From a virus (taxonomy: Duplodnaviria; Heunggongvirae; Uroviricota; Caudoviricetes): a stretch of 64,000 nt of DNA. The number at the start of each line of letters is the position of its first letter. Within the stretch, counting starts at the first letter, position 1. The notes beneath the pieces were generated by a model. That model did no database searches and had not been told where the DNA came from. It saw nothing but the letters and a program-made list of their open reading frames with translations. The stretch is from IMG/VR virus record IMGVR_UViG_3300021431_000083; one strand, 5' to 3'. This document shows, piece after piece, positions 33,147 through 64,000 of the stretch. Made by a program: the position numbers and the translations under genes.

Positions 33147-33148
33147 TA

Positions 33149-33642: not shown

Positions 33643-33686
33643 TTTTCAAGGCAATAAAAAAATAGGGTTTATATAGATTATAAACC

Positions 33687-35338: not shown

Positions 35339-36001
35339 TTAAATATTGCCGCAGCAACCGCCATAATTGCCACAACCGCAGAAGGGATTATTGCCTGCAT
35401 TATATGCGAACATATTTGGATAACGAACAACTCCCTGCATAGCTTGGTCTAATTGTAGCTGATTAATCTGATTTTGCATATCGGCCATACGATTACCAGT
35501 AATCTGATCAGATACTCCTTGAATCTTATCACCAATTTTCTGAACTGCATCATTAACTTGCATAGCAACGTTATAATTGACACCGTCAATCGCGCGTTGG
35601 ACGCTGCAGCAGCATTCATTTTCTTTTGCAAGAAGATTTGCTTGACCAACCGCAAGACCAGCAATATCACGTTGTAGTTCCTGATATTTATCACTTAACG
35701 CACTAATAGTATCATGGAATACTTGGTTTGTAGTCTGTATGCCTTGCATTGTACCAGCATTTACAGCCGCAAGAATTTCACGCTGATTCGCCATGCTGTT
35801 TTGATTATCGAAACCACGCTGTACTTCGTTAGAAGTTGCTAGATTTTCATAACCAATAGCATTAGCAAAACCATTGTTACCAAAGCCATTATTGCCCCAG
35901 CCAAAGATTAAAGCAAAAAGAACAATGACTCACCAGCAACCACCACCCCAATCATTATCATGATTAAGAGCAGCAATATCACTTAATGTCATATCAGCCA
36001 T
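35339..36001 (-). CDS. Gly/Cys-rich protein ending CGCGNYGGCCGNI, 220 aa, needs code 4 (one TGA)
   Basis: Hand translation MADMTLSDIAALNHDNDWGGGCW(TGA)VIVLFALIFGW... joins the track ORF 35339..35794. Confidence 0.45.
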
Positions 36002-36064
36002 AAATATATCCTTCCATTCATTAACAATATTTTATATATCCACTGATTCGCGCGTTCTCAGTAG

Positions 36065-36289
36065 TTATCTTACCATATTTTTGAATGAGCTAAAATCAAA
36101 TCCTCTCTCTTGGAAGGCTTGTTCGGGAGTCTTTCCCTTCATAGAATTAGCAAAATCTCTAAATTGCGGATTTGATTGATACATTTGATTAAACAACTGT
36201 TCCGCACCGCCACCTTTTAATTGATTGATAAGGCCAAAGATACCTTGATTACCAGGTTGCGGCTGATTATCAAATAAGGGATTGGGCAT
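36065..36289 (-). CDS. hypothetical Q/N/G-rich protein (74 aa)
   Basis: Intact ORF, TAA stop. Confidence 0.45.
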   Translation of the reverse strand: MPNPLFDNQPQPGNQGIFGLINQLKGGGAEQLFNQMYQSNPQFRDFANSMKGKTPEQAFQERGFDFSSFKNMVR

Positions 36290-36290
36290 A

Positions 36291-36677
36291 TTAATTCACT
36301 AATCCTTCCAACATATTCTTTAATTCAGAAATATTATTTTGTAATCCTTCTAAATCATCTTTAGTTACGAAATTTGAAGTATCAATTTGTTCAACAACAG
36401 GTTGAACTTCAGGAGTTTTTATTTCTTCAAAAGAAAAAGTTCTTAATGGTAGTGGAAAACCACCATCATCAGTAGTTTTTAAATAAAATACAGGATTATC
36501 TGCATCAAATAAAACAACAGAAGAATCACGACCGAGAGGATATGCTTTTGCACTTTCTGGTCCTGTTACTCTAAAAATATTGTTTATAGAATTTCTATTA
36601 TTTAATTGCTGTTGTTGTTGATATGGTTGATTTCATTGTCAATTATTATTATTTGGCATTCAACCATTATATTGTCC
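36291..36677 (-). CDS. hypothetical protein, 128 aa, needs code 4 (three TGA)
   Basis: MPAGQYNGW(TGA)MPNNNNW(TGA)QW(TGA)NQPYQQQQ... TAA stop. Confidence 0.45.
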
Positions 36678-36689
36678 CGCAGGCATAGC

Positions 36690-36998
36690 TATCACCTTCT
36701 ATCCTTCTGCGTTCATAACGTATGCTTTGGCTAAAGCCATTTTGTCTATTTTAGCTTGTTCCATTTCTTCTCAAAGTTCCATTAACATTGGATCTACTTT
36801 TTCACCGAGTTTACTTTCAGCTAATTTTTTAGACATGTTATGTAATGATTGAGCATGTTCTAACTCTTGCTTAGCCATACTAACATACATTTTAGATAAT
36901 TCTGGATGTTCACGACATGAATTAGCACAGTTAGAATATTCTATTACACCATCTAACTCCTCCATAGTTTGATCATAGAGTTTCCGCATAATCTTCAT
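36690..36998 (-). CDS. hypothetical protein, 102 aa, needs code 4 (one TGA)
   Basis: The track ORF 36771..36998 ends at TGA. It continues ELW(TGA)EEMEQAKIDKMALAKAYVMNAEG to a TAG. Confidence 0.5.
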
Positions 36999-37102
36999 AG
37001 ACGTTTCTCCTTTGATTTTCTTTTTATCTTCTATTATATATAATTTTTAAAGATAATAGTTTATGCACATTCGTTAAAAAATTTTTTAACGGCATAAAAA
37101 AA

Positions 37103-37126
37103 AGAGCACTATAAAAGTGCTCTTTT
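37103..37126. terminator. rho-independent terminator hairpin (AGAGCACT ... AGTGCTCT) with T-run
   Basis: Immediately downstream of the gene ending at 37135. Confidence 0.55.
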
Positions 37127-37134
37127 AATAAATT

Positions 37135-37507
37135 TTATTCACCGTCTGTTGGAGTTTCAGTATTCTCATTATCTGTTGGAGTTTCAGGGGTCTGTTCCGC
37201 AGTTTGCTTCGCATCACGAATAGTGCGAAGAGAAGTGACGATTGAATTTATATCAGCTACAGTGACTTCAGGACTACTTGCCCATTGATCTACAGTGTTG
37301 AGTAAACGAAGACGATTGATTTCTGCAATTCGCTCTTCTGTTGAAAGCCCCATGAAAAGACCAAGTGCTGTATTAGCACCTTCCATATCTCCAAAAGAAC
37401 CATCATCTACAAGTAGACGAGCGCTATCTAAACGATCTACAAAAGTAGTCCGCATCCACTCTTCGGGGATTGAGTCTAGAAAATTATCAATGTATGTAAG
37501 TGCCATT
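37135..37507 (-). CDS. hypothetical acidic protein (start at the internal Met MALTYIDNF)
   Basis: The track ORF is 37135..37530. AAAGGA RBS ahead of the ATG at 37507. Confidence 0.45.
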
Positions 37508-37583
37508 TTAAATCCTTTCTTTAACAACATGTTGTTTTTTATCTTAAATAGGTGGTATAATTTTTATACCACCTAAATAATCA

Positions 37584-37862
37584 CTATTTTTGCGCGGCTA
37601 ATGCTTCCGCAACTTTTTGAGTAACCAATTCATCAAGAGATATTTTTTCTTCTGTTGGAAGTATCACATCTTCTTCTATTGGCTGTTCATATTTAAATTC
37701 TTTGCCATCTCAGCGATAGTCTCAAATGTCATGCTCAAAATTATGATCTGTTGCTACCACATATCAGTCATGTTCTTCAAATTGTCATTCCATTGGTTGT
37801 CCCATTGTAATGCCTAAAGATGCACGACATTTTCCTGTTTCATCTACTAAAACATAAAGCAT
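37584..37862 (-). CDS. Trp-rich small protein, 92 aa, needs code 4 (five TGA)
   Basis: MLYVLVDETGKCRASLGITMGQPMEW(TGA)QFEEHDW(TGA)YVVATDHNFEHDIW(TGA)DYRW(TGA)DGKEF... AAGGAG RBS. Confidence 0.45.
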
Positions 37863-37874
37863 TTTTTCTCCTTT

Positions 37875-40800
37875 TTAAATATTCGCATATGCTACTTGAG
37901 CAGTAATTGTAATATTGTCTTTTGAAGTAGTTCCCAAAGCTCTTCAATAACTGCGAACAGTAACATTATTAGTACCTGACACTTGATTTAAGTCAAAACC
38001 ACGTAAAACATAATAACCAGATCCAGTTCCAGAAGCAGTAACAGCCAATACGCCAACGCATTTTGTAAATCCGCTAGGAGCAGCGATTGTTGTATCAATA
38101 GCAAAAGTGTTTCCATTTGCTCTTGCAGTTCCATCTTTTACTGATGCTGTTGGTCAGTTTGATTTAAAACTAAAATCAACACCTAAGTTAGTACGTGCGG
38201 CAGCTGCGGTCGTGGCGCCTGTACCGCCACCAGTTATTGCTAATGCTGTTCCTGAGCTAGTAGTTATAGATGTATTACCACTATCAGATGCATTAAGATA
38301 AAGTGCTGCGGTTTTACCTGATACTGGATTTTGTACCGCGAAAGAACGATATACAGTAGTAGGATGCCGCACTATTTCAGAATATCCTATACGAGCATCA
38401 GATTTTTCATAGTGATACATTCCAGCTAAAACAATATTTGAATTTGGAGCTTCGCTTGTAACGGCAGCTGCAAGTGAACGTTGTGTCGTATGACCATTCC
38501 AGTCGATAGTAAGAGCATTTGAACGTAAAACATCAGAGCTAGAATTACCAATAATAACAGCACTTGTGGTATCTATTGCATTAAATCTACCAAGAACGGT
38601 CTGATACTCGCCTTCAGCCACAGTTGAACCATTTTGTGCATGGCTACCATATCCACTAGCAATGGTATTATATCCCTCTGCATGACTATAATAAGCAGCT
38701 CTAGTGCAAAACCCCTCTGCATGGCCACAATATCCATTAGCAATAGTGCTTCATCCTTCAGCATGACTATAATCACTTTGAGCTTTAGTATTATATCCTT
38801 CAGCATGACTATAGTCACTTTGAGCTTTAGTATTATATCCTTCAGCATGGGTATAATCAGCAATAGCTCCAGTATTATTACCTTCAGCATGTGAACCTTT
38901 TCCATTAGCAATAGTGTAATAACCCTCAGCGTGAGAGTAAGAACCATTGGCTGTAGTATAAAAACCCTCAGCATGTGAACATTTTTCACTAGCTGTTACA
39001 TTTATTCCTGCTCCTATTGAATACCCGCCTATCTTAAAACCAGATGCTCTTGTTCCAAATGTAAAACTCGGTGATGGCAAATCTTCATCATGAGATATTG
39101 AGATATACATTTTTCTAAAAGCAACACTAGATGTATTTTTTATTGTAAAACTATTTGTTCCATTGTAGGTAATAGTAAAAGTATAAACATCGGTATTAGT
39201 TGTAATCAGTGATATGTATTTTGTTACAGTTAGTGATGTACCTTTTTGAAAAGTTTCTTCAAATGTAGATAAATCACTTTCATGAACAGATACTACTACT
39301 TTAAAATAAAATGTATCTGCTGATGGAGAATGGTTATAAGTTTTTTGAGAATTAGCTTGAAAATTGAATATTGAAAAAGATGTTTCTATTTTTCTAGTTG
39401 TCTCTGCACCTGAGCTAGTCCCTATTTCAAATGCTACTGAATTATTAGCACCAAATAGTTTAATTGAATCATTGTCAATTTCAGCATTAGCAGAGTCTGA
39501 TTCACCAATTCTCGCTATGGTTCCAAAGCTTGCCACGCTCGTAGAACCATCTGGACCAAATATATCTAAACCGTTGGCAGTAGTTGCAGCACGCTTAGAA
39601 TTTTTTTGGTACATAGTTAAACCATTAGCATCAATTTTAGCGCCTAAACTTGATTCACCACTATTATCATAAAATAAAATTTTATCATCTTTAATTTGCA
39701 TACGACCTTGGTTCGCATCAGTGGTATTACCCATAACCACGCCATCGGTTCCATTTAATTTTAGACGAGCTTTATTGCCACCATCAAAGAATGTCGCGGC
39801 TCCACTACTAATTACTAATCTTTCTTGATTAGTTGTACCACCTTTAATTGTTATACCGCCACTGTTAATAGCGATTCTTTCTGTTTGAGACTGATCATAA
39901 AGACTTATTCCATTACCGTTAGCTCAAAGCATATATTTACCGCTACTATTATATAATAAAATATCAGTTCCAAAATGAGCAGCTTTATTAGCTTTACTAC
40001 TTACGGTAGTATAAACATCTAGACCAGATGAAGTAATTGAAGTATAAGACGTAGCATTTTGTTTAATATTAATACTAGACGAAGTAATTTGAACATGTGG
40101 ATAAACTGATATAGATGGTGTTGATCGTGCTATAACAAGACCATTAGTTGAATCAAAATGCATATAATTGGTGATAATTTGTTCAACTAATTTTGATCCA
40201 TCATATTTAAAAGTAGGATTACTGTCTGATAAATTTATTTGATATACGCCACCATTGGTATGTTTTGCACTGTGTGCTGCACCAATAAACACATAAGTTT
40301 TAGCAGTATCGTTTGGTGTTTGCGTCCATCAATTTGTTGCATCAAGGTAAAATAATCCATCAGTTTTTACAGTGCCAACCAAATATACAAATTTTCTTAA
40401 TTGTAAAGTAGAAGCACTATCTAAAGCAATACCATTAGCTGAATATCTAAAATCAAGAGTATTACGTGATTCTCATATTTCACCACTGTTAGCATCTGCC
40501 GCATAATCAGCACCAGCTGCATGATACATTACTTTACCAAGTTGTAAACCGCCAGTATAACATGTTTTTCCACTCGCTGCTACATTATTTGCTTGATTAA
40601 CTATACTTGTTCAATTGCCCGCTGAATCTTTCATGCATAAAGTATAACGTCTAATACCATTAAGACCAGCAACAACTGATGATGCATATCTATTAGCAAC
40701 TGTATCTCCTGTTGTATAATTGTCACATTTCCAATAAGTACCATCGTAAGTCAATTTAAGAACTGAATATTGTGCATAATGTGTGGTTACATTTGAATTA

Positions 40801-43800
40801 TTCAATCGAACATTTTTTGCACCAGTTGTTTTACCATCTGCTAATGTAAGATTGAGTGTTGCAGCAGAGCCTGTACCTGCGCTTGTCATATAAAAAGCAA
40901 TTTGTTTACCTGTATAAAGAGCAGAATCACGTGTAACACCGGTTCATGCATTCGTTGCAGTAGAACCATGTGTTCCTACAATATATTCAATTGCTCCAGA
41001 AAGTGCGGTATTAGCAGTGTCTTGAGCAGCTTCTACTTGTGATGTAGTTGCTGCAGTATTATTACTACCTCAAGTCATCCCACTAGCACTAACTTCAAAA
41101 TATTTAGTAGTACCAGTATATGCTCTTAAAGTAGTTGGACTAATTTCAAATCTTGATGATTTATCTTGACCAATCCTAGCAAAAGCTGTTGTTCCACTTG
41201 TTCCAACAGTAGAACCAAATAAAGCAACTTCTACAGGCGTACTGCTTGCATCAAAAACATGTAAACCAGAAGCGTCAACTGCAGTACGTTTTTTATTACT
41301 GCTATCATATATTGTAACACCAGTATCATTACGAGCAGTTACACGTCCACCAGATGGGTTACCAATAATAACTCCATTTGTTGCACCAGCTTCAAAACGT
41401 TGATTTCCACTTGCATCGTACATTCTAAGAACTTCTGATGTTAACTCTACTTTTGGATTAGCTCCTGATGCATTACTACCCCCATAGAGGATAATATTGC
41501 TAGAGTATTTAGCTTTAAGATAATTATTCTTATAAATATCTATATCTCCGTCATTGCCATTAATATTTACATATGTGTGATTTAATTTTCCAAATCTTGC
41601 CACATCTCCATTAATAGCACCAATACTAGTATTACTTGAATTATAAAAATCAATTCTACCTGATGTTAATTGAATACGCTGATTTTGAGTTGACGGATTA
41701 GCAGATGCAATTCGTAGACCATCCGTACTATCAAATGACATATAATTTGTTGCTGTAGTAGCTGCATTAGTAACATTAGTTTGAGTTTCTCTACGAGAAA
41801 CTACAAAAGTGGATGAATTTACAGGCTGCGTTGTAGTTGGAGATACTGATTGAGCCGAATCAAAAGTATAGGTTTCTGTTTTAATTGATGGTGGAATTGG
41901 AGTATTTGCTTTATATGAATAAATACCACCACCTCTACAATACATCACTAATTTATCACTATGATTTAGTTCTTCGCTAAATGTGACAGGATATAATCCA
42001 TCTGGCAATTGACCAAAATTATAAGAATCAATAAAACTACTTGAAGATGGTTTTCATCCTCATTGAGATGGATAATATGTTATATCGATGCTACAGGCTC
42101 AATGTTTACTATTATGATTCGATCAAGTAGGTGTTCCACCAGCACCATTAAATGTCATAACAACTTTAGTAGACCCACCTGATTTTGCTGGTGATAATAT
42201 TATTGGATATCAAGTATCTTGACTATAAGTAGAAGATGAAAGATCAACAATATGATCATACATTTCTTTAATATTTTCACTATGGTCTATTTCACTAAAA
42301 TGCTTAGGAGGATCAAAAAGTGTGGCACCAGTGATAGCAGCTTCACTTGATGCTTGCATATAACTAGCTAAAATAATATCTGTATTATCATTTCATGTTC
42401 AATCAGTCGCATTTGCATTACCAGCAGTTTGCGAAGAATTATAAGAGCGTGCTTTTCATTTAGCTGTAGAAGTATCTCAATAAACTCCATAAAAAACATT
42501 GTTAGAAGTACGTCTAACACAATAAGTTAATACATTGTAAGGAAAATATGTGTCAGGATTAATTCAATATCCTTTTGGAATTGTCACTTTTGAGCCATTT
42601 CAAATTACTCAACCATCACTATTCGCTGGTGCATAATTATCATCTAAACCACAGAAAAGGCATTCTCCATTATTTGATCCGACAGTTCCATTTCATGAAG
42701 TACAATTTACTTTCATACAAAGACCACCAGTTTTTGGTATCTCATTTTGTATATTAGTTAATTGTGTAGTAGTTGCAGCAATATTATTACCTCAACTTAA
42801 TCCATTTGCAGAAACTTCAAAATATTTAGTATTAGAACTATTATATGCTTGAAGACTATCACTATTCATCAAAAATCTTGATGAATTATTTTTACCAACT
42901 CTAGCTGTTACTCCAAAATTAGCTACATCACTATTATCTTTATAAATAGTCATTCCATTGCTATTAATAGCAACACGATTATTTGTTGTGGATGAAGGGT
43001 GAATTGTAATACCAGCATTGTCAATATGTGTTATATAATTACTAGCAATTTTACTAGCATCATCAATAGCGGAATCTACGTCTTCTGGTGCGGGAGATCA
43101 GTCTGTAGGTTTATTACCTTTTTCAAGTTTAGGCTGTCTTACATAGAGAATTGCCTCTGTCCCACTAGTCTTTGACCCGTTATTGTCAAAGCGTGCAATC
43201 CATATAGCAGTTTCGTTTGTGCCACTCACCCACGTATCAGGCATAGTTACTGTTCAGGTATAATATTCCCAATCAATTGTAAGGGCACTGAAGTTTTTAC
43301 TTTTTACTGTTTTTACTGCAGCATCATATAAAACCATTTCAACGCTTGAAACTTGACCATTTGTTTTCATTCATGCTGAAAACGTATATGTGGCTCCAAG
43401 TTCCAGAGGAACTGTCGTTTTGCCACTAATATATGATTCGCTAGTCGTTGTCGTTGAACGGGTATAGACGCCATCTGCGAATGTTGAATAAGATCAACCC
43501 CTTCCTGTCCCGGAATATGCAAGCAAATTTTTTCCACCAATTTCACCAGCTAAATCACCGATATTAATTTCACTTACTTTAATTTTATTAGCTGCAATAC
43601 TATTTGTTATAATATTTCCACCGTCAATAACAGTCGTATTTTCATCTAATAACACTTTAGTACATTCTACTGTACCATCTAAACGTTTACGTTGTTCACA
43701 AGTGTAAAGACATGGATATTTAGTATACCCATTAGCACTACTATTAGTACCATTAGCTAAAGGTGGAATTTTAGTAGTTCATGCATTATAAACATTTGCA

Positions 43801-46628
43801 GTTGCTTCATTTACTCATGTTGTAGGTGCCGCAAGACTATTATTCGCTGCGGTAGTACGATAATAGATTCTATGAGTTGCTACTATCTCTGTAGGAGTAA
43901 CCTGTCTAAATTTACCATCAATATATGCATACAAACTTTTTGAACTATTAAAATATAATTTATTTGTAGTAGTTGATGTATAGTCATTCGCGAGAATACC
44001 TATTGGAATATAAAAATTACCATCCTCGCTATTTGGTATTTTACAAGTTAAATAATTCGCTGAAGCACAAGTAAACGTATTTCCATTTACTTTACCGACA
44101 ACATATACTATTTTATTGGCCGCAATTTCTGGAATGTTAGCCACAGCTAATGTTGTTGCAATATTTACAGAAGGATAGTTCTCATATGCGTTAGCATATT
44201 GCGATCCACTAGTTCATGCTCCTCCAGCTCAAAGAATTGGATAGGATAAATCAAATGCTACTGATGCAGCGACTTGCTTATAACCAGCAGAAGTTCCGCA
44301 GACAATAGCTCCAGATGTAACTGCCGCAGCTGCTTTGACATAATTATTATGTAGTGTACGATCATAGTTATTTGTATTATATCAACCAGCAGTACGTCAG
44401 TTTGATCCATCAAATGTCATTTGAATAATAGAGCCTGCGGGATAGTGTGATGTTACACGAGTAGTCATAGAATATACGGGGATATTACCACCAACATTAT
44501 TGCCAGCTGAATCTTTAAGTTGTAATGATGCTCCACTACTATTGCCTGCATATGGTAATTTATAAGCAATTGTCTTACCTGCAACTAATGATGTTTCTTT
44601 AGTAATACCTGTTCAATTATTAGTTGCAGCAGTTTGAGTACCTGCAATATATTCAACACCAGCTGCTAAAGTAGCTGCTTCTGCATCTTCTGGTGCAGGA
44701 GATCAGTCAGTTGCTTTATTACCTTTTTCGAGCTTCATATTACGAATATATAATGTATAATCAGTACCAAGATTATATTTTGGGTATACACCAAAAACAG
44801 AGCCTTCTAAAGAGTTAGTTATAAAAGTAAATGAAATATGGGTTCATTTACCAATTGGGACATTAGTTGGTGTATAAATACGTTCTGAAGCGACATCTTC
44901 ATGTGTTTTATCACTAGCTGTACTTGCATTATTACTAACTCCAAAATGACCAAGAGAAGTAAAATTTAAAGGAACTGAAGTTGTATTGGTTGTAGTAGTA
45001 AGATATACTCAAGCACTATAGGTATAAACAGTATTTGCTTCAAGCATTGGAGCCAAGTGAGTATTATCATATCACAATCGTATTGAAGTATTTGCTCCAG
45101 TTGCTTTATATGCTGAATATCCGCCAACAGAATCTATCACCACTGAAACACGTGAAGCTCCGATGGTTTCTAAATTTTCTTGGCTAATAGAACTTCTTTG
45201 AAGTAAATTTCTTCCACCGATTTGAAGATTATCTAAATTAGTTTGAACTGCTGCAGCCGCACCTTTAGTGTCATAATTATTAGTTAAATAATTCCCAAGA
45301 GTAGTTGTAGTATTATCGCTATTCTTAAAAGTTGCGGTTCCATCAATTTCAATATGTTTAGCCTGAATTTTGACACTATCTGCAGATTGATTAATAAGTG
45401 AAGCAACAGTATTACCATTATAATCTGTTGTAGAAACTTTTAATGCTATGTTATCTGCATTTTGAATAATTGCAGACTCTGCACTAGATACACGTTCTTC
45501 AATATCTTCAGGAGCAGGGGTCCAGTCGGTGGCTATCGTTCCTTGCTCTAACTTGGGCAAGCAAAATTCGAATGTTCCTGAGCCTTGTCCACCTATCGTT
45601 ATATTGATAGTAGAGTAATTCTCGGCCGGTATCTCGGTTGCCAAATCGATTCTAGTCCATTCGGATGATGTGGCTCGTAATACAGGAAGATTTATATCCT
45701 TGTATTTCAATCCATTTGGAAACGTTCGATTATTGGTTAAGGTAAATCTAACAAATATTGAACTACCAGATATATCTCCATTAACCTTAACATATGCGCT
45801 GATTACAAATGTAGTGTCCTTGTTCAACGTATCAGGAATAGTTACATTTGTAACGTAAGCGGAGCCTATGCCGCAAAACACTCGACTAGAGCCTGTGTTG
45901 GTGCCTTTGTATCGAATCGAAGACGATCCGTTAAGACCTTCGGCAAACTCAAAGTACTGTTGATTACCGCTCGTTATGCCGACTAACGATAAATCAAATG
46001 ACTTGGGCCACAGATTCTTCCCGCCGATTTCTAAATTATTAAACTCAGTCTTAGTAGTATAATTTGCAGCAACTGTACTGGTAATACTGTCACTAGCAGT
46101 TTTAATAGCAGCATTTCTATCAGTGACTTCTTTACTAATAAAACCATCTACACTAGCCTTATTATAAACGTCACTACTATTAGCTTTAAGAGCAATATTT
46201 GTAGCATTCTGCTCAATAGCAGTCTTAGCAGAATATACACGCTCCATTAAATCACTATCTTGTATTCTCCAATAGGTACCGTCATATGTAAGTGCTATAG
46301 CTGCACCATCCAACCATTCTCGTGCGGCTTTAGTTAATTCATTACCATTATAATCACGAATAGTTTTAGCACCTGTATTATTAACATTTAATGTTGGTGT
46401 AACCGCAGTATTTTTACTTGTGAATTTTACTGTCACAGTTGCACCCGTATAAAGAGTTCAACCAGAATCAGCTGGAACAATTGTAGCTACTTTTGCGGCT
46501 GTGCTTGCACCCGTGCTGCATGTAGCAAATTGTCCTTTAATCTGTGACAAAGTCGCATAGTTTTGTTTAGCATAACTGTTAAAACCACCAGTTGCTTCAA
46601 AACTAATTGAACCAGTTTGTGTACTCAT
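37875..46628 (-). CDS. giant modular tail-fibre or adhesin-like protein, about 2917 aa, open only under code 4 (dozens of TGA, no TAA/TAG)
   Basis: ATG at 46628 with AAGGAG RBS. All track ORF pieces in this span share one frame and are bounded by TGA. Every inter-piece gap was checked triplet by triplet and contains no TAA/TAG. Modules: a TYDGTYW unit repeated three times, a KLEKGNKxTDWxPAPED motif three times, and a SHAEG repeat block. Confidence 0.55.
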
Positions 46629-46641
46629 TTTATCTCCTTAT

Positions 46642-50379: not shown

Positions 50380-50467
50380 CTATTCTCCTTTTGTAGCCGT
50401 TTTTATTTCTATTATATTTAATTTCTAATCATTATTTATTATTAGTTTTTGTTATTTAAAAAGAAAA

Positions 50468-50492
50468 AAGGTCTTGTATAAAACAAGACCTT
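50468..50492. terminator. rho-independent terminator hairpin (AGGTCTTGT ... ACAAGACCT) after the tape-measure gene
   Basis: Perfect inverted repeat with a T-run on the minus strand. Confidence 0.6.
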
Positions 50493-50498
50493 TAATAT

Positions 50499-53400: not shown

Positions 53401-56400
53401 TTACGGGCCATTCTGTTAAATTCACGCTGGCTATCCATCGCTTCAACAACTTGATCAATACCCTCTTGGATACTATCAACTATTTCATCTGCGGCATCTT
53501 GAATTTTCTCATTATACTCTTGAATTTGACTTTGACTATCTTCAATAGTTTTAAGAGAAGATTCATAGTCTGATACTGCTTTCATAAAATCATCATGATC
53601 TTTTTGAGCCAACTCAATATTTTTTTTGTATCAAGTAGTATCTTCTACACCATTACGAACTGCTGCATTATATCTTTCTATTTCATCATTTACTTTTTGA
53701 GTTAAAGCAGCTTCAATATTTTTTCCATTTTCAATGTTACCTTTGGAATCAAATTTAACACTACCAAAACCAGCACGACCCGCAAAACCATTAAGGGTTA
53801 AATTACCATTTTCATCATACGTATGTGTTTGTTGATTTTTTACATGCTTCTTTGCTAAACTAACTTCTTTTTCAAGTAATTTGATATATCCTTTATATTC
53901 ACTCTGCATTTTCTTTAAATTAGAAATACGACTTTTACCAAACAGTCTATCTTCTAATTTTGTTAATTTTTCCATCGCTGCAGATGCACGATCTAAATCA
54001 TTGGTTATATCAGTTAAATAATCTCACTCATTTTTTTGTTTATCTTCTGGATCAATTGTTTTTTGCTTAGGAGTACTATTATTTTTTGGAGAAGAAGATT
54101 TTCCACCAGAAGGTTTTGGATTACTGCTATAACCACCAGTATAAGAAGGATTACGTGCAGCTGTATTTGCAGTTTGAACACCTGAACCAGTATAATGTGT
54201 ACCCTGAAGATATGGAATCCTTGTTGTTGTTTCTACTGGTACCATATGTGGAATCATTCTAATTTTTGGAATAGACGGTGCTTGACTTCCATCTGGCATC
54301 GGTCCAACCTGGTCAACCCAATCTACAGCAACCTCATATTCTACTGCATCAACGGTGCCTTTCCCTTCAGCATATTGAATTTTAGCATCCATTCCAATAG
54401 AAGAAAGAATGTTTGAAGCCTGTTCCGCAGATATTTGACTATCTGCAAGCATCATATTTAATTTTTGAATAAAGGGTTTATCATCGAGATCTGTTGTAAT
54501 TGTAATAGTTCCAGCATTAATTTCTGCTTGTAATTGATTTAATTCATTTAACAATTGTGAACGTACAGCATCAACATCTTCCCCCTTTTTTAATTGAATA
54601 GAAAGATTTTGAATAATATCTTGTGCTGCTGCAATACGTAAATCATCAATGGCAGACATATCACCTTCAGCCATACGTTGAGCATATGCTAAAGCATCTC
54701 CACTTTCAATAAACGTATCACTTAACGTACCAGCATCAATATTCAGAACTTCAGATAATCCTTTATCTAAGTCGTCTAAAGCTTCATATCACTCTGTGGT
54801 ACCTTTAAGAGCATCATTAGTAAGAATTTCAGATATGTCACCAATTTTATTGCGTAAAGTCACAACGCCATTACTCATACGAAGAATTGCGGCAGTAGTA
54901 TCTCTTGCGGCATCATCTAAATCTTCAATTTCAAGATTTATTTTTGAGATTTCTTCTGCTTCTTCTTCTGTAACTTTACCGTCTTCCTTTTTAACAGCAA
55001 TTAAATCTTCAAGACGTTCTTTTTCTTTTTGATAATATCCGCCTTCTTCTTCATAAGAGTTACGAGACATACGATTAAAGGCACCTTCAGACATACCACT
55101 GTCATTAAGGAAGTCTTTGAAATCCTCTTCATTAGAAGAAATATCTATGCGATTGGTAAAAGTATTACCATTAATATTAGTAGTTAAGTCTTCTGCTGCA
55201 GATGTAAGTAATTTAACAGATTCCGCAAATCCTTCAATATTAATCGTGCCATTTTCAATAGCTTTAGAAAAATCTTCTACAGAATTTATATTTAGAGATT
55301 TAAGTTGTTCTTGTAACGATATATCACTATTATAAGCATCAAAAGCAGCATTTTCATCGGCAATAGCTTTTTGATAGGCTTCTAAAATATCTGTTTTACC
55401 AGCTAATATTTCTTGAGTATAAGCTTGAATTCAAGCCCTAGCTTCTTCTTCACCTAAAAATGATAAATATTTTTTTATATCTTCATTTGATTGAAGTTCA
55501 TCAATAACTTCTTGATAATTTTTAACATTATTAAATAATCCACTATCTTTAAAAATATTTGCAGTATTTTCTGCAATCCCTTTATAAACTTCTACTTGTT
55601 TTTCTTCATTTTCAGTCAGTGTATTTTGTGTAACATATGCTTGTTTAGTTTTTATTAATTCTTCAAGAGCAGCTTTTTCTTCAATATATCCATCTTTAGT
55701 ATTATCTAAAAGTGCAAGTTGTTCTCTAGCAACGGCGATCTCTTTTTCAGCTGTTTCAATTGCACTTTTTTTAGTTTCTATCCTTTGGTCACCAGAGATA
55801 GAAGATCCTTCTCCAATGATATAGCCATTATCTCCAACAACAGGGCTACTCAAAGTAGAGTTTTCAGCATTCAAATCTCTAGATTGTTGACGTAATAGAG
55901 CTGTATTATATTCTCTTTGATTAAGTGAAGCCTGTTGAATTTTTTCATTTAACTCATCATATCGACCAGCATTGGCTAAAGCTTCTGCGCCTTCAATTTT
56001 TAAAGCTTCTGCTAATTCTAAAGATTTATTTTTTAAATCTTCTGAAGCTGCGCCAGTTCGTTTATAATTATCATAAACCTCGTCATAAGCAGATTTAGTT
56101 TCATTTAATTTTTGAACAATTTGATTAGAAGTATTAATCTGCTCTTCTAACTGTTGTTTCCTTTTTTCTTCTGCTTCTGCATATTGATTAACAGCAATAG
56201 TAGCCGCAGTTAATGCAGCACCTATTCCTAGAATGGCTCAACCGATAGGACCAGCCATTGCTGCAACTCTTGATTGTTCAATGCCCAATCGTCTAAGAGC
56301 TGCTGTCAATGCCTCAGTAGCAGCTGTTCTTAAACCAGTTTTAATAATTTGACTGGTTGTAACTTTTCCAGTAGCTTCTTCAATGGCAAGATTCGCTGTT

Positions 56401-59072
56401 TTAGTAGCAATTCCTTTTGCCATTGTTTCAGAATATCCTGCTTCTATTAATGCAGCAGTCATTTTTTCTTTATTTAATTTACCTTGCTCTATACTTTCAA
56501 CAGCAATTTTTTTAACAGTATCGCTCCGCAAAGATATGTTTAAAGCTTGTTTATCAGCTCATAACTCTTCAACAACTATTGCCGCAGCTTGTTGTACTTT
56601 TCAAGCTTCTCAAGCTTTATTAAGTTCTCTAACAGCATTTACACCTTGCATAATACCAGGTACTAACATTGTAATACCCATTAAGCCATTTAAGGCAATA
56701 GCATCAATTTTTTCTTTTAGAGAAGCACTTTCATCCCCAAGTGTTTTAAATGTTTCACCTATCATTGAAACACCAAATGCAATTGATGTTAAACTAGATA
56801 AACCTCTAATGATATTATTAATATTAGCTTCAAGATTAACGGTACTAACGGTTGCTTCCACCATCTTTTCACCAATTTTTAAATTATTAGAAGCAACCCC
56901 AAGTTTTTCAATTAAAGATTCTAATTCAGCAATATTAATTCCAAGACCAGAAGCTTCTCGCCGCATTTCTTGTAAACGAGTAATCATTTTTTCATCTACA
57001 CCAGCGCCAGTTGCAATTTTATTTGCATAATTAGCCACTTCTTTTGAAATTTCTGTGTATATCTTTAATTTTTTACTAAGCTCATTTTTAACTTTTTCTT
57101 CTAATTGGAGGGATTTTTCAATTTCTTCAGTAGAAGCTTTGCCTGCTTTAGCTTTCTCTTCTATTAATTTTATTTCTTCAGCATATTCAGTAACTTGCTG
57201 TTGAATTGCAAATTTTTCTTCAACGGCTTTTGCTCCAATTTGTTTAAAGAAAAGTTCTTGTTCTTTTAAAATACCTGTTTTTTGTTCTTCAAGTTCAACA
57301 ATTTGTTGAGACAAATCTCTTATTTTTTCTTGAGTCTTAACAGATAATTGGTCGTAATTATCTGCAACACTAGCAACAAGTTTACCAGCTACGGATTTTT
57401 GTCCTTGAGCTTGACCATAAGTTTGATCATAATTACTTAAACCAACAAGACTAGCAGTAGTTTGTAACTGATTTGCATTTCTACTATTAGCTACAATAGT
57501 TCCAATAGAAGTGGCCATATTTGTAACAGTGCCAGCAATTTGTGTACTAAAAGTACGAAGCATTAATGCACTTATTGCAGGTAAAACACCATTTAGTCCA
57601 CCCATTGCTTCAACTAAATCATTTAAACCATTAACTAAATGAGTAACATCTTCAATAACAGGTTCAACAGCATCTTGATTAAATAATGTAGACATTACTT
57701 GTTCGCCAGCAGCTTGTAAAGTATTAAGCCTACCTTCAATACTCTCCATATATATATCATTCATCTGATTCATCATACCTTCAGAACCAGCTCCGGTAGC
57801 ATTTAAAGCTTTTTGATAATATTCTGGATTATTCATTAATGCGGCGAAACGGTTATATTGGAATTTACCAGCAACTTTTTCACCAACCGCAATTTTCATA
57901 GTATCAGATAAACTAGACCAAACTTCTTGAGTTTCTTGAAGAATTTGGTCCATTCCTTTAAACTGACCTGTAGCATCAAGTACATCTACACCAATTGACT
58001 TTAAAGCATTAGCGTATTGACCATAATCAACGCCATCTTCAGCTGAACCACCAGCTTTAATATCAGCAAAACGTTGATAAATGGTTTTTAGACCATTACC
58101 GATTTCTTCAGCACTTTGACGTGTAACAGATTCAATCGTAGCAATTGAAGCTAAAAATGAATCTTGACTAGCACCGACCGCTTGCGCAACAGATGCGGCA
58201 CGCTGTGATGCGGTCATCAATTCATTAACATTAGATGCTGTATTATTAGCAACATTTGCAACTTTATCCATTGCTGCAGCCGTTTGTTCAAAATCAAGTT
58301 GAAAAGCATTACGGAAAGCAGTAATTTGATCTGAAGTAGTTGCAGTATCTTGTTCTGATACATTCGCTAATTTAATTGATAAATCTGCATATTGCTTAGA
58401 CTCTCTCTCAGAGAAACCTTCTTGAACGAATACTTTAACAGCATTTGTATAGTCAGTAGTGGTTGAACCTAAAGCTTGTGCTGCACTATTCGCATATTGA
58501 GCTAGTTCCCGCATGTCCTCTTTAGATGAGTTAGTAACCATTTGAATCTGAGTTAATGATTCATCTAAATCTTTCATATATGAAACGGCACCTTGAACAC
58601 TACTCATCATCTCTTGGAAAATACTTGCAGTAATACCCCAACGAACAGTATTTCCAAAAGTATTAGCTATTTTAGATAATGTAGTATTTACATTTAAAGC
58701 ACCCTTATTCATTGATAGAAGAGCATTTGACAAATTTGAAATTGCCATAGTACCACGAGTACCCATTTGCTCTCAATCTTTAACTATCATTTGTAAAGAT
58801 GTATGTTCTTTTTGTAATGATGCGTTTAACTTACTAAGATCAATTGTACCAATTTTAGGATTGAATGCTGCAGCAATAGCAGTTTGTAATTGATTAACTT
58901 TTTGAATAGATTTTTCTATTTTAGCATCATCAAAACCTAGTTGACTAAATCCGCTCTTATCAAACTTTAATGACTGTTTTAATTTAGTTAATTCATTTTG
59001 TAATTTAATAATGCCTGACGTATCAACATCTGTTACAATATTATACTCTACAACATTACTATATTTTGCCAT
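50499..59072 (-). CDS. tail tape measure protein (TP901-family-like core), about 2857 aa under code 4
   Basis: The 56610..58766 segment has the typical tape-measure composition. All 13 track pieces share one frame and every boundary checked is TGA. Strong AAGGAGG RBS at the 59072 start. TAA stop at 50499. Confidence 0.55.
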
Positions 59073-59258
59073 AGACTAAACCACCTCCTTATATACTCGA
59101 TATTGACGTTCTTTATGATTATCTTCTATCCTTTTCAAGAACATCCACTCCTTTATCTCTTATACGTATAACAAATAAAATAGGAATTCCAGGTGTAAAT
59201 TACACCTATAATATTTAAAAATTATCATATGTATATTACTGTTTTTTGAAATAAAAAA

Positions 59259-59279
59259 AAGGAGTCTATAAAGACTCCT
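59259..59279. terminator. terminator-like hairpin (GGAGTCT ... AGACTCC) with an A/T run
   Basis: Directly after the 60-aa gene ending at 59278. Confidence 0.45.
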
Positions 59280-59460
59280 AATTCTTTGGCTTTACATTTG
59301 ATATGTCAACATTTAATTCGTTTGCAAGATATTCAATCTGTGCTTTTAATAAATCTATATCTTTACGACATTTTTCATCAACGATTCTTCTAGTATCTCC
59401 ATTTAGAGTAAGATATGATACTGTTTCCATTTCCATTTTAAGCTCCTTTTTCTCCATCAA
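59278..59460 (-). CDS. small protein whose N-terminus (METVSYLTLNGDT) resembles the N-terminus of the collagen-like fibre (MDTVSYLTINDET)
   Basis: Intact ORF, TAG stop. Confidence 0.45.
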   Translation of the reverse strand: MMEKKELKMEMETVSYLTLNGDTRRIVDEKCRKDIDLLKAQIEYLANELNVDISNVKPKN

Positions 59461-59727
59461 TTAAACTATCTATTCTAGTATTGGCACGTTTAGCTTCAGC
59501 TTCTGCGGAAACAGCTATTGTTCGCACATCCTGTAAATCACGACTAAAAGATCTTATATCAATTTTAACTTCCTTAATGTCATTAGACATAAAATCAAGT
59601 TTTGTTTTTATCTCTGACTCAGATGCTTTTTGCTGACTTGCATCTGTTCTAGTATTTCTTAATCACCCCGCGGCACCAACTAAACAACCAATAATAGCTA
59701 TCATTATAGAAATTGTATTTATATCCA
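59438..59727 (-). pseudogene. paralog of 59852..60148 (N-terminal TM plus coiled coil), with an apparent 1-nt frameshift after codon 9
   Basis: ATG GAT ATA AAT ACA ATT TCT ATA ATG TAG. The paralog-like continuation VAIIGCLVGAAGW(TGA)LRN... lies in the -1 frame and aligns without gaps to MDMATVSILIVIVGCVIGLAEW. Confidence 0.4.
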
Positions 59728-59819
59728 TACCTCTCCTTTTTAAAGCTATTATTTAACCATCTATATTATTTGATTTTCAAAAACTATAAATTATTATAAT
59801 TTGTTATTTTAAAACAAAA

Positions 59820-59846
59820 TAGGGCAAGTATTTTTATACTTGCCCA
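59820..59846. terminator. rho-independent terminator hairpin (GGGCAAGTA ... TACTTGCCC)
   Basis: After the gene ending at 59852. Confidence 0.5.
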
Positions 59847-59851
59847 TATAA

Positions 59852-60148
59852 TTATTTCTTGATAGTTGGTGGAACTGGTTCTTGAATTTTTAATTTTTCT
59901 TGAATTAAAGAAATAATTTTTTCATTAACAATTTTTTCTTCAATGGCCTTTTGGACAATGACTTTAGTTAATTCTTCATCATTCTTTAACTCATCCAACT
60001 GTTCTTCAAGATGTTCTATCTTAGTCTCAAGAGTACGAATTTGTGCGGCCATTGTCCCCGCATCATTTTTTATCATCCTTACCCATTCAGCTAAGCCAAT
60101 TACACATCCAACTATTACTATAAGAATACTAACTGTAGCCATATCCAT
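59852..60148 (-). CDS. small membrane protein with N-terminal TM helix and coiled coil (98 aa)
   Basis: Intact ORF, TAA stop. Confidence 0.5.
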   Translation of the reverse strand: MDMATVSILIVIVGCVIGLAEWVRMIKNDAGTMAAQIRTLETKIEHLEEQLDELKNDEELTKVIVQKAIEEKIVNEKIISLIQEKLKIQEPVPPTIKK

Positions 60149-60158
60149 AAGAACCTCC

Positions 60159-63100
60159 TTAGATTCTTTCCATTGCTTTAGACATACTTACTGACATAGC
60201 ACTTCCAACTCCAAGAGGAATAGAAATAGATTTAACCACATAATCACCAAATGTATTTGTACTATGGTCATTTAAAGTAACTCTAACATTTGGTTCTAAA
60301 TAAAAGCATGGAATTGCGGTTATACTAACGATATTCTGATAAGAAGTGTGTTGTTGTAAATCATATCTAATTTGTTCATAAGCAGATTGTTTAAAACTAC
60401 CAGTTGCAAAATTATTACAGTACATATCTGTTACTTGGATAATATCTTCCGCAATGTTTTTTAAATCCGTAAATACTTGATTTTTTTCTTGCGGATTTAA
60501 ACCACTAATATTAACAAAAGCATAGTCAGGAATTTTAGGAGCAAAAATACAGTTAACACCATCACTGACAGTAACATTTGTGCGGCGCCCTATATTCTTT
60601 ACACTATATTCACCTCAAGTGGGAGAAGAACTATCAATCATATCAAAGAAATAATAATAGTGATCATTTTCATAGTTATACAAGAAATTCATAATTTCTC
60701 CTATTTTACCATTTTTAAATGATGCTTTACTACTATCATTACTTTGTTCTTCACCAATATTAGCAGTTTCTCTCTCTTTACCGTCAATAGTTTTATTCGT
60801 AAACTTATATTTATTACTATCAATTAAAACGCCTGTACTACCAACAAAATAATTAATATAATCAATGCTTGTTGAAACTAATTGATTATTTTTAAAATCA
60901 AATGTAGAAGGTCAATTAAGTTTTAATTCTTGATAATAAGGGCCTGGGTCGGTTCCATTCTCTTCAGCCCGCAACCCCATTAAAAATAATTCTGTTCGTC
61001 AATTTGTAGGAACGTAGGTGTTTAACTTATTAGTGTCTGTAACATCAATATAAGGTAAATCTTTCTGTTGTGCATAATTAATATAATCTTGTTTATATCA
61101 AGAAGAATTACAATTCATTGAAGGATAATATGTTTGATTTAAATCAGATACTTTATCGTCTCAATTAATAAGTGAATAATCAATAAAAGTCATCGGTCCG
61201 AATCCATCTGGATAATAAGTTTTACTATTATCCTTTTCACTAGTATGATAATATTGATATCATTCTAATTCATTTCATCCATAATTATTCTCAGTATTAT
61301 CTGTATTATAATATCAGAAAGATGTTGACCGAATATTAATTGTCACATCTACTGGATAATATGTATCTGGAGCAACTAAACCGCCAGCACCGAATGCTGT
61401 CAATGCTGAATATAATAAATTCAATCTTTTATTACATATATCTCTTTGAGACATATAGTTATTAATTAAGTTTTGAATTGCAGTTTTTTTACTAATTAAA
61501 TCTGAAGTTGAACCACCACTTCTTTCAATAAAAGCAATCTCAGCATCATATTCATTTGTTATTTGAGTATATTGTTCAATTAATATATCTAACTGTCTTT
61601 GTTTAATCTGTAATGGATCTAAATATTTTAAACATTGACTCTTTCTTGCGGCCCTCAATGCTTCTTCATAATTTGATGATACAGATACCCCTTCTCAAAG
61701 TTTCTTAATAGATATATCAATAACAGGCCAATAATTCTCATCTTTCTTAGGTAAACTATCTTCATCACTTATATTTGAAAATAATAATTGCAATAGCCGC
61801 AACAATCCACCTACTCTTGGGATAATAGGATCATTGCTATCTTTGTTATCAGAATATGAAGTGTATAAATCTTGATAATATACAAGAGTAGAAGATGAAG
61901 CCTCTTTAGTCATACTATATCTTCTTAATTGTCTCGCCAATGTAAAAATAATATCTCTATATCGTTCTTTATATGTTGAATTATCTGTATAACCCATATA
62001 TCTTTCCAAAAGAGCAAATAAGTAGTTTTTATTATCATCATTATTTGTTTTATTTGAATTAAGAACGAAAGTTCTTTCTTCAGTAATAAGATTATTTTCA
62101 TTCTCAACAAAATTATTATAATGATATTCAAAATCATCCATACCTTTTAATGATTTCTTGAACGTATATGTTTGCGGTTCATCAAATAATCCATATATCT
62201 TACCGCTTTCACCAAACTCTGGAAGTGTTCAAACATATTCACCTTTATTAAGTTTAGGGTCAACTATTATAGGTTTAGTTATTGTAGTATCTTTATTTAC
62301 TGGATCAGTATATATTAATACATTATCATACCCTTCTACGGTAATCGTAGGTTTACTATCAATCACTAAATGATATCTACAAGGACGTTTAACACCACTT
62401 ACATCAATTGTACCTTCAACAATAAAATCATTTTTAATATTCTCATAAGAAGGTGTATTTGTAATACTAATTAAATTTATATTATCATCAAAAGTATAAA
62501 CACTTTTTCCTTGTGTTGATTCATATAAATAATCTATATCTTTTGTTTCTTCAATTTTTTCTCATATATCACTAGATTGAGCATTGTTTAAATAATTTTT
62601 AATTTCTTGAAAATGAAACTTCCCTTGCTCGTCATAAAAGTATTCATAATTACCTAATCAATCTCGCAGCTTGTCTAGAACATCTGTAACTTTACTTCCA
62701 GCATTAAAAGTAAGTTCTTGGTCATAAACAAAATCTTCATACATATAACCTATATTTTGATTAGTTCTATATTCTTTTGCACCAATGACTTCTCCATTAT
62801 AATTAACAGGAGTGTGCGCAGTTTGCTTTTCATCTAAATCAGAAGTAAGACAAACATCATAAGATATTTTATTTGTCTTAGTATCAATAATAGGGTAAAT
62901 TCATAAAGACTCTTCTCCCATTCATCTAATAATTCTTTTAGCTTTACGAGGAATATCATCAATAATAATATTAGATAAATCTTCATTTCCAAAATGATTA
63001 ACAGTTTCCATAATAATATCATAAATTAATGCTTTATTGGTATGAGCAACACCATTAACCATCGTTGTTACTGTATCAAATCTAACAGTCGCGGGAAGTG

Positions 63101-63551
63101 TTCCTCCAATAGTTCCATCTAATTGTGCCATTTTATCTTTAAATTGAAGATTAATACTCGCGGCACCAGTTGCAGAAGCAGAAATAGCAAAACTGGTTAT
63201 AAAGAATACACCTTGCGGGAATCAGATAATTTTTTCACCAGGATATTCATCTGTTTCATTAGTTATACCTAATTCAAGATATATTTTTTTTGATATAGAG
63301 TAATTGCTTTTTATACTTTCAGGGTCATATTTAAAAGCATCAACCGCACAACTTAAATTACAAGTGCGGCGAACAGCGGAATCCCCATTTTTAGTGAGGG
63401 TTCCGCTGGTTATTTTTCCTTCTATACTCTCTAATGGTACTTCACTACTATATTCGAGCAATGTGATTTTAACTCATTGTTCTCGAACACGAAGAGTATC
63501 AATTTTACTAAGGAAATTTGTATCATTAGAGTATGGATATTGTTTTTTCAT
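60159..63551 (-). CDS. large virion structural protein, about 1130 aa, needs code 4. Putative tail or baseplate component.
   Basis: ATG at 63551 with GGAGGA RBS. The six track ORF pieces share one frame. TAA stop at 60159. Confidence 0.5.
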
Positions 63552-63571
63552 TTTTCCTCCTTAGTAAAATT

Positions 63572-64000
63572 TTATTTTTCTCTTTCGTCAACAATATCAA
63601 ATAATCCAAAAGAAGCAATGGAATTTATGTCTTTTCCATTACCTATTTCATACATTGTTGCACTAAAATTATAAAGTCTGCGGCCAAGCACCGTGTCTGG
63701 GGTCATAGTAACACCATCTAGCATAACTATCATATTGCCTTCTGTCATTGACCTAAACAACTTAGGCTTACCATTATTTAATCAATCTTCAACCGCATCA
63801 CGATATTCACGCTCATAAAGTCAATCATTATTAGGTTTAATACTTTGACATTCTGCAGTATGTGGTAATATTGCCGCAGGATTGTATCTATAATTATAAT
63901 ATTCTTCACCAAAAATTTCTTGTTTTGGTAAAAATAATTCACCACTATCTTCTGTTGATATACGGCCAGAAATACTATAAGTATGATATTTTAATTTGGC
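63572..64000 (-). CDS. structural protein, 3' part only, needs code 4. It starts beyond the window edge.
   Basis: The track ORF 63572..63760 is preceded by an in-frame TGA. The frame stays open to position 64000. TAA stop. Confidence 0.45.

Follow-up and report, generated by a model that had tools for sequence, protein, structure and literature searches.

Results

Recoded Tail and Fiber Genes

We analyzed a 64,000-nt stretch of DNA of a tailed phage (Caudoviricetes; IMG/VR record IMGVR_UViG_3300021431_000083), hereafter called the window, in which the tail and fiber genes carry numerous in-frame TGA codons that appear to be read as tryptophan (Trp). The long genes of the window are all encoded on the minus strand (Table 1), and those in 35339-64000 include four long open reading frames (ORFs), encoding a giant fiber, a collagen-like fiber, a tape measure protein, and a virion protein of 1130 amino acids (aa). 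With TAA and TAG as the sole stops, the ORFs have exactly the lengths that the original prediction, made from the sequence alone, had given for them, and they contain 93 in-frame TGAs in total. Their coding frames are free of other stops, as had been reported for the boundaries checked earlier, with 0 TAA or TAG in 8149 codons, compared with 22-207 of each per gene in the two remaining frames of that strand. Under the standard code (code 11), the giant fiber, collagen-like fiber, tape measure, and 1130-aa genes are split into 40, 22, 18, and 17 pieces, respectively. Open frames of ≥450 nt cover 0.49 of 35339-64000 under code 11 and 0.92 of it when TGA is taken as sense, while a control in which TAG was taken as sense gave a coverage of 0.51; the structural genes are thus open only with TGA as a sense codon, as had been proposed.

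The repeated modules of the giant fiber are written with both codons. The Trp of the TDWxPAPED module is encoded by TGG at 45522-45524 and by TGA at 44703-44705 and 43098-43100, and that of the YDGTYW module by TGG at 46269-46271 and 40731-40733, the variant FDGSNW having TGA at 44397-44399; the codons reported earlier for these repeats proved correct to the base. When TGA is translated, family matches also extend across the recoded positions, as was expected of code-4 translations: database gene calls for the same phage contain the tape measure as an intact 2857-aa product with PF10145 PhageMin_Tail, and PHROG tail-fiber families match the collagen-like fiber across stretches containing many TGA sites.

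The genes of the window could be placed by exact protein match on an ENA scaffold, SHIW14-1_SAMN02144230-S010 scaffold_115 (ERZ28612961; 140,415 bp), and were likewise matched in other sheep-rumen assemblies; the attribution to sheep rumen depends on the underlying data (SRR8735xx/AUXO01) being those of Shi et al. 2014. Loci from scaffold_115 match positions 1-11382 and 59141-64000 of the window with 100% identity, and a JGI contig does so for positions 9784-30284. As the window spans both ends of the scaffold, the genome is circular or circularly permuted, with a length of ~140.4-140.9 kb. The database gene calls for scaffold_115 already treat TGA as sense.

The TGAs could alternatively be real stops, belonging to degraded genes, resulting from assembly errors, or separating many short genes. 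The code-11 ORF map and nothing else speaks for this, and it is contradicted by the lack of TAA and TAG in the long frames, by the identical sequence in independent assemblies, by TGA positions that are kept across orthologues of 59% identity, and by full-length family matches that run across the TGAs. We give this explanation practically no credence.

Contrast in TGA Usage between Gene Classes

The ratio of TGA to TGG codons is 103:28 in 35339-64000 and 26:133 in 1-35338 (P value = 1.5e-27, Fisher test), and the gene-by-gene counts that had been suggested as a check show the regional contrast clearly. TGA makes up ~79% of the Trp codons in the tail, fiber, and lysis genes and ~16% in the rest of the window, where the cases are confined to a handful of genes. 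In 1-35338, 46 of the 61 minus-strand ORFs contain no TGA; among the products of this part of the window are an SPFH protein and homing-type endonucleases, along with 14 tRNAs and numerous small proteins. The codon is nearly absent from genes of nucleotide metabolism, RNA repair, and replication and from small accessory genes. TGA/TGG counts in this genome are 0/5 for NrdD, 0/1 for dUTPase, 0/2 for the DnaE C-terminus, and 0/5 for a glycosyltransferase.

The original prediction had gone further and stated that early genes avoid TGA entirely. This stands for the 46 TGA-free ORFs but not for the two neighboring genes in 7106-8784, which together have 8 TGA and 0 TGG, nor for a few others with a single TGA. 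The second of the two neighbors has SHAEG/YadA-head-type repeats resembling the C-terminus of the giant fiber. TGA use tracks function (virion and lysis proteins, plus an endonuclease) more than position, and the avoidance of TGA outside the virion and lysis genes is strong, not total. Calling the genes of 0.7-34 kb "early" is itself a guess, because they follow the tail genes on the same strand. Among the ORFs of 1-35338, which are bounded by TAA or TAG by construction, no TGA terminator was found except in one ambiguous case: the metallophosphoesterase ORF at 25966-26544, the sole candidate in the window for TGA as a terminator.

Table 1. Positions of genes and other features in the window, with counts of in-frame TGA and TGG codons
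Position	Strand	Feature	TGA/TGG	Remarks
595-7002	-	TGA-free block	0 TGA	~20 small genes, including a SprT-like protein and five tandem paralogues
3068-4430	-	Five tandem paralogues		83-92 aa
7106-7609	-	Fully recoded gene, 167 aa	3/0	Intact gene call on scaffold_115
7609-8784	-	Fiber-like protein, 391 aa	5/0	SHAEG/YadA-head repeats; intact gene call on scaffold_115
9903-11126	-	BspA-type leucine-rich repeat protein, 407 aa	1/2	
15666-16601	-	ORF	1 TGA	
16704-24329	-	tRNA cluster		14 tRNAs; ARAGORN, Rfam
17099-17170	-	tRNA-like element		Good acceptor, D, and T arms; 15-nt irregular insert, defective anticodon arm
17400-17470	-	tRNA-like element		Good acceptor, D, and T arms; stem with GCAA tetraloop in place of anticodon arm
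21036-21112	-	tRNA-Trp(CCA)		ARAGORN
21438-21950	-	PD-(D/E)XK endonuclease in tRNA cluster	1 TGA	TGA at codon 54; PF11645 (E = 6.5e-29) spans TGA
22754-23365	-	GIY-YIG endonuclease		
24991-25566	-	ROOL RNA		Full length; RF03087
25966-26544	-	Metallophosphoesterase ORF		Ends TGA ATG TAA; Trp-Met-stop or stop, ambiguous
25966-34202	-	Nearly TGA-free block		Trp = TGG; metallophosphatases, PNK-like kinase, Rnl1- and Rnl2-type RNA ligases, dCMP deaminase
35339-37862	-	Six small genes 3' of fibers		Two of six without TGA
35339-36001	-	Small gene	1/3	
36291-36686	-	Small gene	3/0	
36699-36998	-	Small gene	1/0	
37584-37862	-	Small gene	4/0	
37875-46628	-	Giant fiber, 2917 aa	39/11	8754 nt; TDWxPAPED and YDGTYW modules repeated
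46642-50379	-	Collagen-like tail fiber/host-specificity protein, 1245 aa	21/7	3738 nt
50499-59072	-	Tape measure protein, 2857 aa	17/3	8574 nt
59438-59728	-	Small protein, 96 aa	1/0	Precomputed LPP match
60159-63551	-	Virion (tail/baseplate-region) protein, 1130 aa	16/1	3393 nt; matches phrog_32343

Amino Acid at TGA

The 1130-aa protein was aligned by codon with orthologues at 97, 64, 59, and 59% identity. All 20 of its 20 Trp-codon columns are TGA/TGG columns, and at six of them TGA and TGG are swapped between the sequences. The other codons seen at these columns are TAT/TAC, AGA, and TTA only, and GGN, TCN, AGY, and TGY codons were found in the orthologues at none of the 20. A second comparison was provided by the GH25 endolysin, which is encoded in the same genome outside the window (L029 11429-13102) and has 13 TGA and 3 TGG codons. 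One TGA of the lysin falls on the Trp in the motif YP(L/V)WIA.Y when aligned with the structures PDB 4kru and 5a6s. Within the catalytic domain, six of the seven TGA columns are rich in Trp among 45 database homologues (45, 44, 40, 22, 20, and 17 of the 45), the background frequency of Trp in this comparison being 3.4%. Because the orthologue columns, the Trp positions of the GH25 enzymes, and the internal repeats written with TGG agree, we conclude from these alignments that TGA is a sense codon for Trp, which is what the original prediction had proposed.

TGAs that align with Gly in homologues would speak for a different amino acid: one of the seven lysin columns is dominated by Gly, and none of the 20 columns of the 1130-aa protein contains it. 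On these counts, we rejected code 25, under which TGA is Gly.

Suppressor tRNA Cassette

A phage-supplied tRNA decoding UGA had been suggested as the agent of the recoding. ARAGORN found no tRNA with the anticodon UCA within the window, but the same genome encodes one of 97 nt at L029 10758-10854 (scaffold_115 ~89,244-89,340), ~30.5 kb beyond window position 1. Just upstream of it lies a conserved 166-aa gene, which was reached via related contigs and then found on scaffold_115.

The tRNA(UCA) belongs to a cassette (L029 10531-10925) consisting of a promoter-like site, a ribosome-binding site, a small ORF, the tRNA, and a terminator-like site. The promoter-like site is sigma-70-like, TTGACG-17-TAAAAT with a TG extension, and relatives have a perfect TTGACA-17-TATAAT; such matches occur in AT-rich DNA at chance frequency, and the weight of the site comes from its conservation in relatives only. 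The small ORF forms a leader of 56-57 codons that ends 0-3 nt before the tRNA, contains one invariant in-frame TGA, and is conserved at the protein level in relatives with all three forms of the tRNA described below. Its TGA hints at a control of, or feedback on, the supply of the suppressor. The terminator-like site after the tRNA is a 14-bp hairpin followed by a T-run, and directly 3' of the cassette are a holin-like gene with two transmembrane segments (1 TGA) and then the gene of the GH25 lysin. An exact-pattern search with the sequence 3' of the tRNA found two relatives only.

Architecture of the tRNA and a Possible Wider Class

The tRNA(UCA) of this genome (L029), which has the same form in L018, is predicted to combine acceptor, T, and anticodon stems of 8, 4, and 6 bp, respectively, with a long variable arm (an 8/4 form, named after the acceptor and T stems) and a D arm of a 5-bp stem and a 7-nt loop. 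Its first pair is A1-U72, its discriminator base is G73, and CCA is encoded at the end. The same slot is occupied in close relatives by a canonical 7/5 form and in more distant relatives (L043 10756-11064; L045 1287-1707) by a 7/5 form in which a group I intron interrupts the anticodon loop after U34, so that three versions are found in the syntenic slot of the phage lineage. The introns are of 214 and 326 nt, the one in L045 matching Rfam Intron_gpI with 41.8 bits (E = 1.4e-7), and ARAGORN called no tRNA at the intron-split genes. The variants of the anticodon stem and the variable stem differ by fully compensatory changes, which means that selection maintains the gene as a tRNA; the 8-bp acceptor stem does not vary between the copies found and thus lacks support from covariation. 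A1-U72, G73, and the anticodon arm xCGGU-CUUCAAA-ACCGx resemble those of the tRNA-Trp of E. coli and B. subtilis. In the 7/5 forms, moreover, the loop of the variable arm, (C/G)UCCAAA, equals the anticodon-loop sequence of tRNA-Trp.

We scanned IMG/VR for a UCA loop followed by TCCAAA and a T loop and found 70 stretches. Sixty-one of these were called tRNA(UCA), 49 of them unique. Most have the acceptor stem of bacterial tRNA-Trp, AGGGGC.../...GCCCCU-G-CCA, and TCCAAA forms part of the loop of a hairpin of 4-7 bp whose stem covaries, the 7-nt loop NUCCAAN repeating the CCA anticodon loop. A second scan, not conditioned on the variable arm, gave at least 73 unique tRNAs called by ARAGORN and at least 82 unique pattern matches. 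Among the tRNAs listed, 39 have a long arm containing UCCA, and 31 of these have UCCAAA, with 25 of the 31 starting with A1; a further 16 have a long arm with a different loop, and 15 of the 16 start with G1 and resemble true tRNA-Sec, and 17 are of the ordinary class I type. Dozens of phage tRNA(UCA) genes in the IMG/VR loci L051-L183 (e.g., L069 766-861, L071, and L073) resemble bacterial tRNA-Trp, with the AGGGGC acceptor stem, A1-U72, and G73. The Trp-like long-arm tRNAs separate cleanly from the G1-type, Sec-like UCA tRNAs. The surrounding DNA differs as well: around the Trp-like tRNAs, the median open-frame coverage rises from 0.40 to 0.61 when TGA is taken as sense, whereas around the Sec-like tRNAs it goes from 0.76 to 0.82, with no comparable gain.

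Tentatively, and with considerable doubt, we suggest from these sequence patterns that the UGA decoder of the phage may belong to a widespread and apparently undescribed class of opal suppressors. These would be look-alikes of tRNA-Trp (A1-U72, G73, AGGGGC, and C34U) with a variable-arm hairpin whose loop has the sequence of the CCA anticodon loop; such an arm would serve as a decoy anticodon arm that keeps the tryptophanyl-tRNA synthetase (TrpRS) of the host charging a tRNA with the anticodon UCA. No long-variable-arm or intron-split Trp opal suppressor of phages was found in the literature, the coverage of which was incomplete, so that novelty is unproven.

The unusual fold also bears on the identity of the inserted residue, as the codon could stand for Gly (code 25), for selenocysteine, or, through a tRNA akin to the 8/4 allo-tRNAs, for Ser. 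ARAGORN labels the tRNA(UCA) "SeC"; its 8-bp acceptor stem, 6-bp anticodon stem, long variable arm, and G73 are those of tRNA-Sec and allo-tRNA-Ser; and one TGA of the lysin does lie in a Gly column. Yet the codons of these amino acids never appear at TGA columns in the orthologues, TGAs coincide with invariant Trp residues of GH25 enzymes and with TGG in the internal repeats, and A1-U72, G73, and the anticodon arm mark the molecule as Trp-like. Insertion of selenocysteine that depends on SECIS elements would, moreover, be incompatible with 103 TGAs in 28 kb. Another residue is hence highly improbable. Selenocysteine in particular was rejected, the 103 TGAs being at Trp columns and the tRNA having an 8/4 or 7/5 form with A1-U72 and not an 8/5 form with G1-C72.

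Lineage and Probable Host

Precomputed Pfam matches on scaffold_115 include YonD_N, YonB, YomW, YomV_2nd (weak), YomU_Tube, and PhageMin_Tail, and the scaffold encodes a DnaE-type polymerase and NrdD/NrdG. Judged by these head and tail families, the polymerase, and NrdD/NrdG, the phage is an SPbeta-like siphovirus. Megablast of 20 kb of the window against a collection of deposited phages gave no match, and a homology search with the DnaE C-terminus matched only fragments on short contigs. More distant relatives, with ~50% identity in the YonB-like protein, were found in bins of metagenome-assembled genomes (MAGs) labelled Bacilli or Erysipelotrichaceae. Three standard-code relatives (L046, L047, and L050) are contigs of 113-117 kb from MAGs labelled "uncultured Bacilli"; each is probably a complete phage genome that was binned as a bacterial one. 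In the structural ORFs of the relatives at ~50% identity, we found no in-frame TGA, the same genes being written with TGG only, and the recoding is therefore a derived trait of the sublineage studied here.

The host is probably a Firmicute, and the TGA-free gene set, the peptidoglycan-degrading GH25 lysin, the standard-code relatives, and, indirectly as well, the Bacilli and Erysipelotrichaceae labels of the MAGs suggest that it most likely stops at UGA. Were the host instead a Mycoplasma- or Spiroplasma-like bacterium that natively uses code 4, the phage would simply follow the code of its host. TGA is Trp in those bacteria, and the GTDB class to which the MAG bins of the distant relatives belong also holds mollicutes. 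Under code 4, however, there would be no need for the 46 of 61 left-half ORFs to use TGG only (133 TGG), the phage has a tRNA(UCA) of its own, the relatives have these genes in the standard code, and a GH25 muramidase as endolysin implies that the host has peptidoglycan. We therefore regard a native code-4 host as very unlikely.

Other Features of the Window

The two tRNA-like elements of the tRNA cluster lie within a 1.5-kb ORF-free stretch adjoining tRNA-Ser and could be pseudo-tRNAs or decoys; both were rejected as candidates for a UCA tRNA, as they have no usable anticodon loop. We also considered whether the tRNA-Trp(CCA) of the cluster might read UGA in the manner of the Hirsh suppressor and dropped the idea, its D arm being noncanonical and not reliably numberable. 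The GIY-YIG and PD-(D/E)XK endonuclease genes lie between tRNA genes, much like homing endonucleases, and the PD-(D/E)XK gene alone is recoded. The ROOL RNA (334.5 bits; gathering score, 99.1) sits between the tRNA cluster and a group of RNA-repair genes (25966-31740) that encode a PNK-like kinase, Rnl1, Rnl2, and phosphoesterases. The five tandem paralogues in 3068-4430 share an N-terminal M(L/I/F)(T/S)AA(E/Q/D)A motif and the C-terminus (V/I)(S/N/Q)W, and all of them stop with TAG.

Discussion

Our results make it very probable that UGA is read as Trp when the virion and lysis genes of the phage are translated and that, most likely, the codon is a stop for the host. In the mechanism that we propose, the TrpRS of the host would charge the tRNA(UCA) with Trp. 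Until this tRNA accumulates, release factor 2 of the host would truncate every protein whose gene contains TGA, and virion proteins, and especially lysis proteins, would therefore be made only after the switch of the code. Genes needed before the switch would be kept free of TGA, both as a sense codon and as a stop.

Several observations weigh against this explanation or parts of it. The promoter of the cassette resembles a strong housekeeping promoter, and the tRNA may thus be made early, which would weaken the idea of a strict late switch. Several non-structural genes each carry one TGA, and codon 383 of the lysin, a TGA, falls in a column where 34 of the 45 homologues have Gly. The Rfam tRNA model stayed below its gathering score for the copies tested, form A in L018 and form B in L020. 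No release factor or TrpRS gene was found in the ~110 kb examined, and ~30 kb of the genome (scaffold_115 ~98,987-129,408) lay outside this inspection for RF1 and TrpRS. A long variable arm and G73 are regarded by Mukai et al. (PMC5389517) as determinants for seryl-tRNA synthetase, and charging with Trp is thus not self-evident.

It is also a real, if unlikely, possibility that TGA is read as Trp through the phage tRNA but that the skew between genes is a neutral by-product and not a regulatory switch. AT pressure (34% GC) would then have drifted TGG to TGA wherever the suppressor is present, and only genes expressed before the suppressor would have been purged of TGA. The free exchange of TGA and TGG at the same columns among close relatives fits well with such drift, as do the single TGAs in some non-structural genes, the standard-code relatives without in-frame TGA in these structural genes, and the housekeeping-type promoter at the tRNA. 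TGA stops are, in addition, nearly lost in standard-code relatives of recoded phages, according to Borges et al. (10.1101/2021.08.26.457843). Drift accounts less well for the extreme bias of individual genes, with TGA/TGG counts of 13/3 in the lysin, 16/1 in the 1130-aa protein, and 8/0 in the two outlying fiber-like genes, or for the position of the cassette directly upstream of the lysis genes. The statistics in that preprint (10.1101/2021.08.26.457843), showing that lysis-linked families are preferentially recoded, likewise favor a regulated switch.

Whichever explanation holds for the skew, the recoding matters for annotation: code 11 gives ~97 fragments for four genes, and code 4 is also the one to use for related rumen contigs. 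An SPbeta-like phage joins the recoded phages, and its standard-code relatives at ~50% identity may be useful for studying the onset of a code change. Suppressors of this kind may go undetected, given their long variable arm, the below-threshold Rfam score in two relatives, and the intron-split genes missed by ARAGORN. The mimic of the CCA loop in the variable arm offers a concrete hypothesis, testable in vitro, on how host synthetases charge suppressors.

Recoding of TGA to Trp in phages has been published before, and the present phage is a clear example of it, not a new kind of system. The closest parallels come from Borges et al. (bioRxiv 10.1101/2021.08.26.457843), who describe TGA-to-Trp recoding in several clades of gut phages with standard-code Firmicutes or Bacteroidetes as hosts. 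In those phages, as in ours, TGA is used in structural and lysis genes and replication genes keep the standard code; the recoded modules are dispersed across the genome, TGA also occurs in an (intron) endonuclease gene, and the lysis cassette is heavily recoded, as is a tail gene beside it. A suppressor tRNA(UCA) and near-absence of TGA stops are further points in common. Among the clades described there, the "Agate" phages, with genomes of 127-154 kb, predicted Firmicutes hosts, and occurrence in cattle, pig, and tortoise, fit this ~140 kb rumen phage; the likeness is one of size, habitat, and recoding pattern only, the clade being defined by terminase phylogeny. The SPbeta-type structural genes, the odd architecture of the suppressor, and the leader ORF are not described in the text consulted. 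According to the same source (Borges et al., 10.1101/2021.08.26.457843), suppressor tRNAs were detected in 35% of code-4 genomes, and RF1 and TrpRS genes that change the code are optional and known from two Jade genomes only. The code-change operon of the Jade phages lies upstream of the lysis cassette, and the tRNA(UCA) cassette is similarly placed here.

Reassignment of a stop codon in late genes by means of a phage suppressor tRNA in a standard-code host is shared with the crAss-like phages and Lak phages that use code 15. These belong to other phage groups (podovirus-like crAss-like phages and Lak megaphages), read TAG as Gln, and have Bacteroidota hosts. For the TAG-recoded crAss-like phages, the recoding has reportedly been validated by metaproteomics. 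SPbeta has the YonD_N, YonB, YomW, YomV, and YomU_Tube families, a very long tape measure, a DnaE-type polymerase, and NrdD/NrdG in common with the phage studied here, and its genome of ~135-140 kb is of similar size, but it uses the standard code throughout, and the sequence identity is too low to give megablast matches in the phage collection.

With regard to the tRNA itself, Mukai et al. (2017, PMC5389517) described 8/4 tRNAs in phages and in Clostridia of the bovine rumen. The 8-bp acceptor stem, 4-bp T stem, 6-bp anticodon stem, long variable arm, and G73 of these allo-tRNAs recur in the predicted fold of ours. They differ in accepting Ser, as predicted or shown, where the codon here stands for Trp, and in their D arm, where a long stem capped by a tetraloop takes the place of the 5-bp stem and 7-nt loop; A1-U72 is a further difference of the present tRNA. 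A C34U change is also found in the classical opal suppressor that arose from tRNA-Trp and in Mycoplasma tRNA-Trp(UCA); in a tRNA-Trp, this change allows UGA to be read while charging with Trp is retained, as cited for E. coli by Borges et al. (10.1101/2021.08.26.457843). Those tRNAs are of the ordinary class I type, whereas the phage family described here has an added hairpin in the variable region.

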